NCBI RefSeq assembly: GCF_030028105.1
Contig: NC_092382.1
Span: 53,085,764-53,149,763, forward strand
DNA from: Mobula birostris
Taxonomy: Eukaryota
Direction of reading: 5' to 3'
DNA: 64,000 nt
The position numbers were made by a program, and so were the translations under genes. The notes under the pieces are model-generated. The model did no database searches, was not told the DNA's origin, and saw only the letters and a list, made by a program, of their open reading frames with translations. Each line of letters opens with the position of its first letter. The stretch's first letter is position 1. This document shows, one piece after another, positions 27,845 to 55,663 of the stretch.

Positions 27845-28734
27845 TAGAGATAGTGACCATATTCATCCTGTCTCGGGGAAAGTGTGGCCTCTCCAGAGTT
27901 GTCAAATGCAGCTGGTTGCCATGGCCGTGGCGGATCTGCTGGTTCTTATCCTGGATCTGATACTGAGCAAGGTTTCACTTACGCACATGCCAATCGGCGC
28001 TTTCTTCCGCTCAATGACCACGGTGTAATATCCACGCTGCTCTGATTTACACCGTCACCGACTGTTCGGTCTGGTTCACCGTCACGTTCACCTCTGATCG
28101 AGTTGTCGCCATTTATTGCTTGAAACTGAAAACAAAATATTGCACCGGGAAAACTGTGGCCGTGGTTTTGGGGACAGTGACTGTGATCAGCTGTTTAAAG
28201 AATATGTATTGGTGTTTTAGGCTCTCAGAGAACTGCACGTGGACAATCAACCCATTCATTTGTTCACAGAGAGTTCTTGTTTTCAGTTTCATAACTCAAA
28301 TTGACCTATTTTATTACTTCCTCGACCCTGTACTGACATTTGTGCTGGTTCTAGTAACGAACGGTTTCACCGCCAGGCACGTCTTAGTCACCAGCAGAGC
28401 TCGCAGGAGACTCAGGGTTCCCGGCAATGGACAGAGTACCATAGACCCGGAGATGGAGAAACGCAGGAAATGCCTCGTTTTATTGCTGATCACTTCGGGG
28501 AATTTCATCGTGCTATGGGCACCTTTCACTGTTTATTCTGCGTGGTATCGGCTGAATGATTTTATCAACCCTGTGCGTCCGCCCGAATCGCTGAGAGAGC
28601 TGGGCATCATTCTGCAGCTTCTGAGCTGTTGTACAAACACGGCCCTTTACGCCGTTACACAGACCAAGTTCAGGGAACAGCTACAGAATATGGTAAATTC
28701 TGCGCTTGCTGTCATTGTTGTGAGGAAGTCGTGA
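27845..28734 (+). pseudogene. GPR139-like GPCR exon-2 pseudogene
   Basis: Colinear with 40087-40985. It has a 1-bp and a 2-bp deletion with a TGA at 27958 between them, DRF changed to DRV, and no exon 1. The 3' flank 28735-29190 is homologous to 40986-41430. Confidence 0.9.
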
Positions 28735-29189
28735 ATTAGCGGTGTCTCCGGTCTGACCCAATTTACGTCCCATACATTGCGGTTACTTTCTGTTCCTCTG
28801 GGTCCGGCGCTATCCTTCTTCCACTCACACCTCCGCGGCAATTACATAGAAGGTTCCCTTACATAGCCGCAGTGCTCTATCCTCATTCGCCGGCCTATCT
28901 TCCCATCACTGCCCTACAGATGTTAGTGAATTTTGCTCCATGGTTCCACGTGCATTCTTTCTGGCCGCCCGGATACTTTGATTCACCTGCAAGGCCATAA
29001 TCCTCTGAGGGCGTCTGTGTTCCCGAAACAACCCGTTCACCCCCTACAGAGATGACTGAATTGGTGCCGCGAGTCCATGGACGACTCAATTGGAGATGCT
29101 TCCTGCAGCCTCGCTGATCTCGTCATTTTCATCTACGTTGCCTACAACTTCCCACATGGACCTCAGATTAGATTGCTTCCATTCTGACA

Positions 29190-29700
29190 TCTCTCTCATC
29201 TATCGATCTTTCTGTCCAAAATTCCAGAGACAGATTATCTAACGAAATATTTTACAAAGCCAAGCTACTGTCTGTCACAGTTATCTTGACGATACCTCCT
29301 GCCGCACGGATACTGGCAAAAGTGCTATTCCATTCTATCATTTGCATAGATGAGACTTTCCTCTCAAGTCATTTTACAGCAAATGGAGATTCTCTTTCAC
29401 CACGATTGAAGGTGCCATCACCACTCCCTGTCTCATTTCACGCAGGTAAAACACTCCATCCCTCCCAAACTAACAGAAGTGATGGGGTCTCCTGGTCCTC
29501 AGGTAACACGCAATGAGCTTTCGCATGCAAGATAGCTTCTATAACTTCCACCATCTCCATAGCGACTCTACCACCCGGCAGGACTTTCCCTCCCCCATCT
29601 CCGGTTTCCAAAGATCGCTTTCTGCGCGACTCTATTGTTTACTCGTCGTTGCCCACATGTCCCCCCTATTACTGTCACCGTACTCCAGACATTATTTCCA
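29190..29700 (+). mobile_element. Old Penelope-like RT C-terminal fragment
   Basis: atattttacaaagcc, ggggtctcctggtcctc and aacttccaccatctcc resemble 55670-56070. Confidence 0.55.
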
Positions 29701-29805
29701 CACGGACACTGGTTATTCAAGTACAACGGAGACCACAATGATAACATACTTCATTTCCAGTGTCCACTCCCTTGCAAGAAATAAAATACTGATTATCCAT
29801 CAGGG

Positions 29806-52257: not shown

Positions 52258-52999
52258 CAGTCCTGTTGCCTGAGCTGAAGCTTTTCTCCAGCACTATGTG
52301 TAGGATTAGACCACATCAGTTCCCAGTTTCTTCACTGTGTCTTTTGTTCTGGGTTCACAGCATCTCCTCTTCCACTCAACCACACCTCCCGCCCCCCCCC
52401 CGCCCCAGCAACTCTTTCTCTGAGAGCTAAAATTCTGACACTGAAAGTTAGTTCAAACGGGAAAACAAAAGCAAAAGTAGAGACAGAAGAGAAAAAGATC
52501 GCGAAGGAAAGGACAGGTAATGATGGGAACAGGAGTGCTTGATACCGACGAAATTATACTCCAAAAACAGACAGTTTTGTCAGAATCGGGAAGAAGGGGT
52601 GACAGGTTCGCCTCAGGATTCAATTTCAGTGTGGCGAGGGTGAGATGCAAAGGAGATTTTTCTGGGATGCTGAGGCCACTGGTGCCGTCGGGATCGACTG
52701 TAAATAGCTGTTTTATAACTGTAAGGCAACACACACAAAATGCTGGAGCAACTCAGCAGATAGGGGGCAACTTTGGAAAAAAGTAAACATTCAACTATTC
52801 GGGCCGACAATCTTCACGATTTCGTGTGCGTTCTGTATTTCGAGCATCGACCGAGTTTCTCATGCTTTGTTTGTAACTCTGTTCATCGTATTGTTTCCGT
52901 TTGCTCACAAGTGGGAGTACAGAATAGGGACATGAAAGCAGCTGAATTGTACCACTGCACAGCATTTATTTATATCCGCTGAATGAGTTTCAAAATCCA

Positions 53000-53877
53000 T
53001 TACAGTGGGTATATCACCGCATTCTTGAGGTCCTCTCGGAATTTGCTCTGAGTCAGGGCGTAAATGCACGTGTTGGTGCAGGAACTGATGATCTGAAGCA
53101 TTCCCGATGTCTCTTGTACAATGTAAACAGGATGCATGACAGAATAATAAACAAAACTCATTGAAATCCGTTAATAGATATAAAATACCAAACGTGTTCC
53201 GCACAACAATATGAAACTACCGGTTATGCTGAAGAGCAAAACGATGGATTTGCGTCGGTTCTCCATCTCCCGGTCCTTGTCATTCTCTCCACTCTTTTGT
53301 CCCCGGAGCCTTCTGCGGGCTCGACTGGCCACTAGAATCCGCCTGGCTGTCAGAATATTGAACAACAAAATCAGAAAGAATGGGACACAAGGGGTAAAAA
53401 TGCGGTGAAGCATCTCAAATACCGCCCATGAAGAAGAGTATTTGTAGCTCGATGTAGGAACACAATACCAGGGAACACCATCAATTATTACAAGAGGTTC
53501 AGAAGTAAAGCCCCAAGGGACATTCTCCAAACAGGCCAGCACACTCACTGACCCGATAACCACAGCCGCCGTTCTCTCGGTGCAATATTTTGTTTTTAGC
53601 TTCTCACAGCAAATAGCCACAAATCGATCGACGGTGAAAGCGACAGTTAGCCAGACAGAGGCCGCGGTGCTCGCAAAAATCAACCATCTGGCGAGACTGC
53701 ACACAGGAGTAATGAACAGGAATGATCGGCGAAAGTAAATCCAAGCAGTCCACATCAGCAGCGGTTGCGAGATAACGACCAGGAGATCGGCCGCTGCCAT
53801 TCCCACCAGGTAGCGAGTAACACATTTGGAGAGACCGCACTTTCCACGGGAGAGGATCGCAATCGCCACCAAGTTCG
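53000..53877 (-). pseudogene. GPR139-like GPCR exon 2 with a premature TAA at 53171-53173
   Basis: Acceptor ttccag|[37 protein letters not shown]. After the TAA the frame continues for 56 codons through TM7 (SSCTNTCIY) and helix 8 (KFRE). Confidence 0.9.
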
Positions 53878-54983
53878 CTGGAAGAGAGACAGAAAATAGC
53901 AAATTGAGAAAAAACTGAGCAGAACCCAATGCAGCAGTTTTCGGGGATCATCTAATATTTGGACTTTAATGCTGCATTTAACGGTAGAAAGTTGAAGAGA
54001 GGTCCAAGAGCTGATTGAGTTTATACATTAAAATAAAGCCAAATGATTTGAATTTGGATTCCTTTCTGATGACCAAAATGTGAAGAGGCAGCGGAAAGAT
54101 AAAGCTCGGTAACCTCAGAGTCAGTGCTGGTTGGAACATTTTCTATCGGCTTCATCCGCGTCTGATATGAATGAAATTAATAAATCTGGACGCTGATGGC
54201 GGGATTCTTGCATTAGACAATCATCAACTTCCATGCAACTCCCTGTCAGCGACAGAATAGCCGAAGGACGAAACAGAAACAGGAAATCCTGGAACCACTC
54301 ATCCAGGCAAAATTGAATATGTGGGAAAGCAGTTAGCGTGTATTTTGTTGGAACTGTTTACAGAGAGCCCCTATGACACGACTTTCTCTTTCTATAGATG
54401 CTACTTTGTGCCTCTAGCATTCCCCGTGTTTGTTCCCTATTGCAGCATTTCTCACCTCGCTGATTTTACAACAGAACATTGTCCGAGGCAGCAGTCACAG
54501 CGAGGTCTGATACAGCCTCACAGATATACTCGAAGCCTCCGACTGAATCCATCACAGCGAAGCCGGGGAGAGGGATTCAACGTCCAGTAGCAGACCCGGT
54601 GACGCAGTGGAATGTCTGTAGAGGGGTCAGATGTGGATATGATAGAATACACTTCACAGTATTGATCAGCAGCGACGTCACTGTGTTGTCCAACAACTGT
54701 TTTATTTTCTGTCACACCGCACACATTTACTAAAAATCCTCAAGTTCCATGCTGCAACATGGAACTCATCACATTTCCTAAATCGTTATCACTAATCGAT
54801 GGTTTGATCATTACACGTGGCTCACACGACCGCTGACATACCAATGCAGACCAATTGTTATCATCTCCACAGCAGTATAAACACAATATTGGCAAATGCA
54901 GTGTAGCTGCTTCGAGACCAAAAGCACAGAGACCCGAGCATTACATCATTGAAACACAAACCGCTGGAAGAAATCCGCCTGCC

Positions 54984-55663
54984 CCACTGAGGTCCACCGA
55001 TGATTTCTACAGCGTTTATTTTTAGATCCAGACATCAGAATCCACAGTGGCTGGTTTCGATTCCATTCCGAGAATGCCGAACACCAGGACTGAACATGTG
55101 ACCGTGGAAACCAGCGACAGAAACGATCACTACGTTGGCATTTAACTTCAATTCCCGCCAACGGCAGCTGATAAGGCGGCTTACCGGGAATTCCAAAGGC
55201 TGAAATAAATGGATAGTAAACTTCTCCTATCCGTAAAAGGACTGGATACCCCATTTCAGTAATAATCTGCCAATTGTCTTGCTTCTGAACTCACAGCTCC
55301 TTCAGCAACTCTGAGCTAATGCATTCAAAACGGCTCTGATTTATACAAAGGATCAGTCTCCAGAGATACGGTTATGCCGCTGACGAACTGACAACAGTCA
55401 CTTGAATAAACATGGGAATTGAACACCATTCATTGTCTCTGATGTCAATATTCAGCCGACTGAAGACAAGCACTTCTAAATTCCTAGGCATTACCTCAGC
55501 GGTTACTCACCTCGGGAAAGGAAATCTGCGTGACCCACTGAGGTCTATCGATGAATCCTACAGCGGTTTATTTTTAGATCCAGATTTCAGAATCCACAGA
55601 AGCTGGTTTCGATTCCATTCCGAGAATGCTGAATACCAGGACTGGACATGTGGCAGTGGAAAC
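54984..55663. repeat. Diverged direct repeat of about 128 bp (54984-55110 and 55535-55663)
   Basis: cccactgaggtc...tttatttttagatccaga...gctggtttcgattccattccgagaatgc...gtggaaac occurs twice. Confidence 0.85.
55185..55254 (-). pseudogene. Exon 1 of the minus-strand GPR139-like GPCR
   Basis: MGYPVLLRIGEVYYPFISAFGIP with a phase-1 donor G|GTAAGC, at the same intron position as the intact paralog; TATAAA at 55345-55340. Confidence 0.85.

Follow-up and report, generated by a model that had tools for sequence, protein, structure and literature searches.

The window analysed here, a stretch of 64,000 nt from the genome of the ray Mobula birostris, contains members of a family of class A (rhodopsin-like) G-protein coupled receptors (GPCRs) of cartilaginous fishes, which probably act as a chemosensory repertoire shaped by birth and death. 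We favour this reading because the family is large and clustered, its copies die frequently, its cytoplasmic half is constant, and its extracellular half and pocket are diversifying. The cluster is not local; judged from motif matches, this one ray genome carries at least 1,700 loci of the family.

The gene content reported in a first-pass annotation of the window (one intact gene, two pseudogenes and a probable fourth remnant) was upheld for the first three loci. Copy B, located on the plus strand, is an intact two-exon class A GPCR gene encoding a protein of 359 aa. It is composed of (i) exon 1 (38711..38891; 60 codons plus 1 nt), which specifies the N-terminus and the first half of TM1, (ii) a phase-1 GT-AG intron (38892..40086), which ends 2 nt before the N1.50 codon, and (iii) exon 2 (40087..40985), which specifies the remainder of the receptor from TM1 to helix 8, and is 100% identical (rounded) to a RefSeq/UniRef shark/ray model. 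Copy A, also on the plus strand, is a pseudogene represented by exon 2 alone (27850..28734; 7tm_1, E 7e-10), with two frameshifts close to the 5' end; its sequence reads DRV, which corrects the DRF previously ascribed to it. A retrotransposon gag remnant (27442..27849, plus strand; PF03732, E 2.7e-6) adjoins copy A and has replaced its upstream portion, where its intron and exon 1 would be expected; similarity to copy B begins at position 27850. Copy C, on the minus strand, contains exon 1 (55254-55185; 23 codons plus 1 nt), in which the extracellular N-terminus is almost absent, a phase-1 intron (53878..55184) and exon 2 (53877-52970), which is disrupted by a single premature TAA (53173-53171); sisters of this copy, 98-99% identical, have open frames. 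The TM1 intron that all copies were said to share is documented for B and C only, since exon 1 and the intron of A are absent from the window. The supposed fourth gene copy (55509..55663, minus strand) was rejected: it is non-coding, lacks any coding match, and is an 86% duplicate of a piece of intron 1 of copy C (54960-55111). A GIY-YIG-like frame (55675-56556) adjoins it. The whole window is part of a larger duplication: a stretch spanning at least 116 kb recurs 19 Mb away at 99.8-100% identity.

The motifs LSRGKCGLS (ICL1), RARRRL...EME.RRK (ICL3) and NTxxY are present in all three copies, as initially described. The lack of proline in NPxxY is true of these copies but is not distinctive, as GPR139 itself has NFFLY. 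The strong divergence of the extracellular faces between plus- and minus-strand paralogs was also borne out: copy B and a sister of copy C share 29 of 126 residues in the outer half and 103 of 167 in the inner half.

The receptors belong to class A. Copy B matches PF00001 with 75.5 bits (cut-off 30.5), and 7tm_1 is its sole Pfam match at E values up to 0.1. The predicted model (pLDDT 73) has seven helices plus helix 8, and the fold-search matches listed are all generic class A receptors. The hallmark positions are conserved in 77 members compared: D3.49 (77/77), R3.50 (75/77), W6.48 (74/77) and Y7.53 (77/77), with T at position 7.50 in 73. By profile, the best solved-structure match is GPR139 (E 1.4e-16, next 1.9e-9); a search of the PDB with a single sequence was uninformative, placing 5-HT1E above GPR139. 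With 7tm_1 as the only match and GPR139 as the nearest solved relative, the sequences do not fall within the OR, TAAR, V1R, V2R or T2R families. In all 148 open loci, which represent 122 distinct sequences and include GPR139, GPR142 and two conserved ray genes, L071 and L082, a phase-1 acceptor AG is located 2 nt before N1.50. Intron donors were located for L082 and, within the family, for 36 of 43 genes; a search of 9.8 kb for the other 7 genes identified no exon 1, and none was identified for the C12 clade either.

The earlier designation of these receptors as GPR139-like holds only loosely, in the sense of the wider GPR139 branch. GPR139 and GPR142 are the best profile match and possess the identical intron and an NPxxY without proline, but each is encoded by a separate gene of this ray (a single match apiece), with an identity of 23-30% to the family. 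In three trees, which took in no OR or TAAR rows, the family forms a clade apart from GPR139+GPR142 (support 99/98 and 100/100 in two of them), and its sister is a salamander gene. Forcing the family and the salamander gene together with GPR139/GPR142, a group named after the first tree, gave a borderline p-AU of 0.045. Orthology with GPR139 was rejected on the grounds of the separate gene, the separate branch and the amino-acid pocket, which the family does not conserve. The closest paralogs of the family are L082 and L071 (support 99/96 and 99/98), the former with relatives in sturgeon, coelacanth, teleosts, amphibians and reptiles. These two genes, which share the intron, are probably GPR210A/B, orphan receptors of bony fishes that PMC6504862 lists alongside GPR139/142; this identity is based on the fit to the distribution described there, in a paper that mentions sharks 0 times, and the sister of the family itself is the salamander gene rather than either of them. 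The nearest non-vertebrate look-alikes are invertebrate receptors of the GPR139 branch (Pfam Srw/Srx-matching, FMRFamide-receptor-like and amphioxus "GPR139"), of which the ray expansion is nevertheless independent. The amphioxus protein groups on the family side (93/82), and annelid-type rows join the family in one tree (96/93) and are unresolved in another.

The family extends across the cartilaginous fishes, with members in rays and sharks and in a chimaera. An E value of 0.001 is passed by 1,829 of 3,521 candidate proteins, and all of the 120 matches listed are from sharks and rays; one chimaera member was found, and deep family clades are common to the ray, sharks and a chimaera. The copies descend from a single ancestor gene, which has a sister gene in salamanders, and arose through both tandem and segmental duplication. 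Exact motif scans of this 4-Gb ray genome returned 1,719 sites for ICL1 and 1,571 for TM7, with 0 sites for either reversed-pattern control. Paralogs are thus counted in thousands rather than in the small number that had been named as an argument against a sensory family. The main exon is open in about 40-55% of sampled loci (33 of the 60 loci picked by motif, and 4 of the 10 within the 264 kb around the window). Copies span 58-100% identity, 5 of 136 matches lie on small contigs, copy B has 16 near-identical copies, and at least 43 lineages below 80% identity occur among 143 open family loci sampled. A search with PF10324 contributed nothing further (8 matches). An unrelated 480-aa GPCR frame is present in 7 copies in the same chromosome region. 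Copy number overstates functional diversity, given how many of the copies are segmental duplicates with almost the same sequence and that an unrelated GPCR has been multiplied alongside.

The amino-acid agonist pocket of GPR139, a receptor activated by L-Trp/L-Phe and coupled mainly to Gq/11, is formed by E108, F109, W166, W170, H187, W241, R244 and N271 (PMC8807744). All eight residues are kept in ray GPR139 and GPR142. Across the 77 family members, positions 3.32, ECL2 W170, 6.51 and 7.38 are hypervariable, E108, W170, R244 and N271 are not kept, and W6.48 is the sole pocket residue retained throughout.

Selection was analysed in 105 sequences (293 codons) using the M8 and M8a site models, with gene conversion only partly controlled. 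Inner halves are under purifying selection; in three young clades the dN/dS of the outer halves is close to 1, and pocket sites show positive selection. The outer/inner ratios in these clades are 0.96/0.31, 0.98/0.32 and 0.95/0.26, and 0.58/0.24 overall; when dS was freed per region the contrast was smaller (0.48 vs 0.28). Comparison of M8 with M8a gave 2dL values of 113, 30, 19, 9 and 48. In four disjoint clades, 24 of the 27 flagged sites fall within the outer half, which makes up 43% of columns (binomial p 1e-6); they include 2.57, 2.61, 2.65, 3.29, 6.51 and ECL2 C+2. When separate trees were used, the signal was kept in outer halves (2dL 76, 18) and absent from inner halves (0.8, 2.0). One clade of four, the C7 cluster (7 sequences), showed no outer/inner contrast (0.49/0.36, 2dL 2.5). 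Selection thus differs between the halves, and is not uniformly purifying, which had been the other objection anticipated.

The upstream regions of 29 de-duplicated genes, which share descent, were compared with 406 upstream windows using 16 patterns, consensus strings that were selected post hoc, once the sequences had been inspected. Enrichment was observed for O/E-like sites with one mismatch (8/29 vs 25/406), homeodomain sites (17/29 vs 92/406), forkhead sites (20/29 vs 129/406), CRE sites (8/29 vs 14/406) and an O/E-to-TATA spacing of 17-24 bp (10/29 vs 9/406). An unbiased search for motifs recovered the forkhead-like site and did not recover O/E. No enrichment was seen in family promoters for PU.1/ETS, IRF, octamer, RFX, REST or MYB patterns. 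By motif match, copy C has a putative promoter module (55339..55412, minus strand) with forkhead-like (about -158), O/E-like (-112) and TATA box (-91) sites, and copy B a putative promoter (38563..38597, plus strand) with CRE-like and TATA-like sites and no O/E, homeodomain or forkhead match. Enrichment of O/E, homeodomain and TATA sites characterizes mouse OR promoters (PMC3247239).

If the family is chemosensory, ligands would differ from receptor to receptor, being external small molecules or short peptides bound in the usual seven-helix pocket, and all members would signal via one shared G-protein face. By analogy with GPR139 and with the olfactory neurons of sharks, microvillous cells of the Go/TRPC2 type, this face would probably couple Gq/Go to phospholipase C. 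More tentatively, the shared forkhead-homeodomain-O/E-TATA module might place many members in one sensory neuron class, most likely olfactory, or possibly in skin or oral chemosensory cells.

The birth-and-death pattern and outer-face positive selection would also fit an innate-immune or barrier-surveillance repertoire of leukocytes or epithelia, diversified in an arms race with the microbes or parasites whose molecules it detects; formyl-peptide and Mas-related receptors of mammals provide a comparable analogy. EBF and forkhead factors act in B cells too, so that the EBF-like and forkhead sites would suit B-lineage control, and a loose NF-kB pattern is marginally enriched (15/29 vs 135/406, p 0.037). 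However, the PU.1/ETS, IRF and octamer patterns are among those without enrichment, and homeodomain, O/E and TATA together constitute the OR promoter signature; we regard an immune role as unlikely. Less likely still are reproductive or endocrine receptors reading a co-diversifying set of the animal's own peptides, such as signals from gametes, oviduct or semen, an idea that accords with kinship to the MIP/sex-peptide/FMRFamide receptor branch. GPR139/142 and protostome peptide receptors are of common origin (PMC8514136). FMRFamide-receptor-like clusters occur among the Atlas neighbours and CRE sites are enriched, but frequent pseudogenisation and the many pocket variants are easier to reconcile with external ligands than with a small number of endogenous ones. 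We know of no matching endogenous peptide family.

That the copies are mostly passengers, with few functional receptors in duplication-prone regions and a copy number devoid of adaptive meaning, is very improbable, and for the family as a whole largely refuted. The duplicated segment, the near-identical copies of B, the co-amplified 480-aa frame and the roughly half of loci that are broken agree with such amplification; the divergent lineages, the deep clades common to sharks and chimaera, inner halves that are under purifying selection in young clades too, and the restriction of positive selection to outer halves do not. Inflation of the count by uncollapsed haplotypes, which the window duplicate and the matches on small contigs might suggest, is extremely unlikely: a diploid assembly at most doubles a locus, whereas the copies span a wide range of identity and the family occurs in many species.

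The family would thus work like the OR, TAAR, V1R, V2R, T1R and T2R repertoires: it is clustered, very large and rich in pseudogenes, with a variable pocket and short N-termini in most members; the post hoc O/E-homeodomain-TATA motif enrichment, which copy B lacks, may be a further resemblance. The family differs from them in sequence and in its TM1 intron. With about half of its loci retaining an open main exon, it matches the mammalian OR repertoire in size, hidden under a wrong automatic name. Cartilaginous fishes have been described as GPCR-poor (PMC8455134), with 20-62 olfactory receptor genes (PMC10869828), a number far exceeded by this family, despite many olfactory neurons (PMC10116579). 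We tentatively suggest that a seventh vertebrate chemoreceptor family, numbering approximately a thousand intact genes in one ray species, may have arisen from the GPR139 branch as the main odorant/pheromone repertoire of sharks, rays and chimaeras. If sensory, the family would be a new group of vertebrate chemoreceptors and the shark-nose paradox would become testable; as the main odorant repertoire, it would overturn the view that the large noses of these fishes depend on no more than several dozen receptors. An immune family would represent a new germline-encoded recognition system. Under either reading, the conserved salamander and bony fish relatives offer a way to approach the ligand of the ancestral receptor.

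Contigs of three runs from the same species, RNA by guess, contain pieces of other family members, none of them at least 95% like copy B, and give a weak hint of transcription. A genome-unique 30-mer occurred in contigs of depth 10, 428 and 208, and a 26-copy 30-mer in contigs of depth 19 and 28. These contigs were kept out of the evidence, since depth cannot rank genes, the tissue is unlabelled, the deepest copy is a frameshifted member, and none of them showed a splice junction. A catshark brain-plus-olfactory library has no GPCR among its 50 most specific genes (PMC11979771). Our literature search retrieved no description of the shark/ray family, and "receptor 139" is absent from the supplements of PMC11057056 (3 files), PMC13188829 (8 files) and PMC8455134 (12 of 24 files). 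In databases the family is mislabelled as GPR139 by automatic naming: the RefSeq/UniRef shark and ray models entitled "probable G-protein coupled receptor 139", "capa receptor-like" and "vasopressin V2 receptor-like" are its members.

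Six-frame translation located the motifs named in the first-pass annotation at three sites in the window. All three copies carry these motifs; copy A reads DRV in place of DRF. Copy B (+), with two exons, is intact: exon 1 (38711-38891) and exon 2 (40087-40985) are separated by a GT-AG intron and encode a protein of 359 aa (7tm_1, 75.5 bits); the AlphaFold model of its database twin contains seven helices and helix 8. Copy C (-) retains both exons, with a single premature TAA, and its sisters (98-99% identical) are open. Copy A (+) is an exon 2 with frameshifts, with a gag remnant in place of the upstream part. 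The proposed complement of one intact gene and two pseudogenes is thereby confirmed; the fourth remnant is a 155-bp duplicate of copy C intron sequence (86% identical) without a coding match, and was rejected as a gene copy. Copy B and a copy C sister have in common 62% of the residues of the inner (cytoplasmic) half and 23% of those of the outer (ligand-facing) half. Exon 1 of the family genes shows two architectures: in most it comprises 22-32 codons, with almost no extracellular N-terminus, and in the B-like clade 56-60 codons.

The paralogs are not few: in exact scans of the 4.0-Gb genome the ICL1 motif matched at 1,719 sites and the TM7 motif at 1,571, against 0 for the reversed controls. 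On C3-C11, a TM7 partner was found at 34 of 70 ICL1 sites and an ICL1 partner at 34 of 99 TM7 sites; this overlap count leaves out a single TM7 match listed on C1. Of the 10 loci in a 264-kb stretch surrounding the window, 7 have the ICL1 motif and 4 the TM7 motif. Since many loci lack one or the other motif, scaling gives a total of 2,500-5,000 loci, which is only rough because motif capture varies by clade. Exon 2 is open in 33 of 60 loci drawn from the 100 ICL1 sites at the head of the listing (C4-C11, including 10 of the 46 sites on C11 and 10 of the 11 on C9), and in 4 of the 10 loci around the window, one of them scored from a separate search. As exon 2 alone was judged, the figure of about a thousand intact genes is an estimate.

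GPR139 is the best solved relative in profile searches, yet the family shares only 23-30% identity with it. The ray genome yielded one match each for GPR139 (C11; found by a short motif, 86% identity to a human entry) and GPR142 (C28; recovered with the ray GPR139 as query). Two conserved orphans of the GPR139 branch, L082 (also L273; G000:C18:55.2 Mb) and L071 (G000:C3:115.3 Mb), are nearer to the family than GPR139 and GPR142, with median scores of 99 and 65 bits versus 56 and 50, and are probably the GPR210A/B described in PMC6504862. Relatives of L082 span sharks to reptiles, birds and mammals being absent among the 120 listed; two carry TMEM183A-isoform labels. Three trees (86, 43 and 35 rows, with long branches) grouped the family with a salamander gene (98; 99/94; 100/99), next joined by L082 and L071 (98; 99/96; 99/98), with GPR139 and GPR142 together and apart. 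D2.50 is missing from the salamander gene (P0470, P0511-P0514; three species; 100/99), whose branch is long. An amphioxus protein fell on the family side (93/82), and the placement of annelid-type rows was unstable between trees. The AU test spoke against joining the family to GPR139/142 only at a borderline level (p 0.045). The intron acceptor lies 2 nt before N1.50 in 148 of 148 open loci, with GPR139, GPR142, L071 and L082 among them. Ray GPR139 and GPR142 conserve the eight pocket residues that PMC8807744 names for GPR139, whereas in 77 family members they are highly variable, W6.48 excepted. The designation "GPR139-like" holds only in a loose sense, for the intron position and the best solved relative; by trees and pocket the family is distinct from GPR139 and GPR142. 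In a protein search 1,829 of 3,521 candidates passed, the 120 listed all coming from sharks and rays; members were also identified in catsharks, carpet sharks and Callorhinchus.

Selection was not uniformly purifying. The codon model reproduced the IQ-TREE likelihood. With dS common to both halves, it gave outer/inner dN/dS of 0.96/0.31 in the C clade (33 sequences), 0.98/0.32 in the B clade (14), 0.95/0.26 in the 98-101 Mb cluster (9) and 0.58/0.24 in all 105 sequences; in the C7 cluster (7 sequences; 0.49/0.36) the contrast was not significant. These fits are grid approximations with relative branch lengths fixed, and the samples lean to close relatives of the window genes. M8 was preferred over M8a (2dL 113, 30, 19 and 9 in the four clades, 48 in all 105), and the outer half accounts for 24 of the 27 sites flagged in the four clades (p 1e-6), among them 2.57, 2.61, 2.65, 3.29, 6.51 and residues following the ECL2 cysteine. 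On refitting with separate trees, a partial guard against gene conversion, the outer halves retained the signal (76, 18), as did most thirds (49, 27, 6.5; 5.8, 29, 2.3), and the inner halves gave no signal of positive selection (0.8, 2.0). Family copies have multiplied and have often been lost, the cytoplasmic face remaining constant and the ligand face diversifying.

Recent segmental duplication accounts for many family copies. The window and its flanks (at least 116 kb) are repeated at 99.8-100% identity 19.4 Mb away (G000:C17:33690156-33806392), and the A-B pair, with a spacing of about 12.2 kb, recurs some 15 times over 33-87 Mb of C17. Family clusters occur on at least C3-C7, C9, C11, C12, C17, C24, C33 and C34, and the 143 open loci form 43 groups at 80% identity. 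That the copy number reflects passenger amplification is improbable, and an assembly artefact hardly credible. We rather favour a putative chemosensory role, in which many external ligands would feed into a single transduction pathway. By analogy this is likely to be Gq/Go-PLC, because GPR139 signals mainly by Gq/11 (PMC8807744) and the olfactory neurons of the catshark are of the microvillous Go/TRPC2 type (PMC10116579). Endogenous peptide signalling through these receptors seems rather unlikely.

Exon 1 was found for 36 of 43 genes (four low-scoring, accepted by eye), and the 250 bp 5′ of the start codon of 29 de-duplicated genes were compared with 406 upstream windows. O/E-like palindromes occurred in 8/29 versus 25/406 at one mismatch and 25/29 versus 211/406 at two, homeodomain sites in 17/29 versus 92/406, forkhead sites in 20/29 versus 129/406 and CRE in 8/29 versus 14/406. 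An O/E-like site 17-24 bp upstream of a TATA-like box was present in 10 of the genes and 9 of the windows. A putative promoter module of forkhead-like, O/E-like and TATA sites, identified by pattern match, is found in copy C and is absent from copy B. An unbiased search gave a forkhead-like motif at about -150. The same site types, O/E, homeodomain and TATA, are reported as enriched in mouse OR promoters (PMC3247239), the likeness being one of patterns. In the same comparison ETS, IRF and octamer patterns were not enriched and NF-kB was marginal; immune surveillance by the family is a doubtful alternative to chemosensation. Since the patterns were consensus strings picked after the data were viewed, and the genes are related by descent, the promoter result is a lead only.

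Full-text literature searches, with subscription papers mostly outside their coverage, found no GPR139-branch expansion in cartilaginous fishes. Neither the sensory genome paper on the catshark (PMC11979771) nor the whale shark paper (PMC8455134), the vertebrate chemoreceptor survey (PMC10869828) or PMC13113109 mentions "GPR139" in its main text. Sharks are described there as GPCR-poor (PMC8455134), with 20-62 olfactory receptor genes (PMC10869828). This kind of system is known; its origin in the GPR139 branch and its scale in cartilaginous fishes appear to be undescribed. Family gene models are already in RefSeq, misleadingly named. Among P0008, P0012 and P0444 are database models in which the TM6-TM7 end is duplicated or which run into an unrelated gene model; such models are probably artefacts of annotating tandem arrays.

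A different class A GPCR (frame of 480 aa) is present seven times on C17 (39.8-84.7 Mb) and once on C11 (G000:C11:28374023), probably carried along as a passenger by the duplications that multiplied the family copies. L241, a frameshifted family copy (G000:C17:90056915-90059944), lies directly 3′ of a frame which, by a motif match, we take to be retroviral env-like. In two sequencing runs the contigs carrying L241 had the greatest depth, so the retroviral remnant may drive its transcription. The window also contains a 33-bp minisatellite (50397-52211; 55 copies, 98%), in-frame open on both strands, and a C2H2 zinc-finger array (13961-15850, -) of about 20 fingers, whose two frames are separated by a stop or frameshift. 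A 294-aa frame (55675-56556, +) gave a weak GIY-YIG match under the cut-off and is presumably Penelope-like, judging by resemblance.
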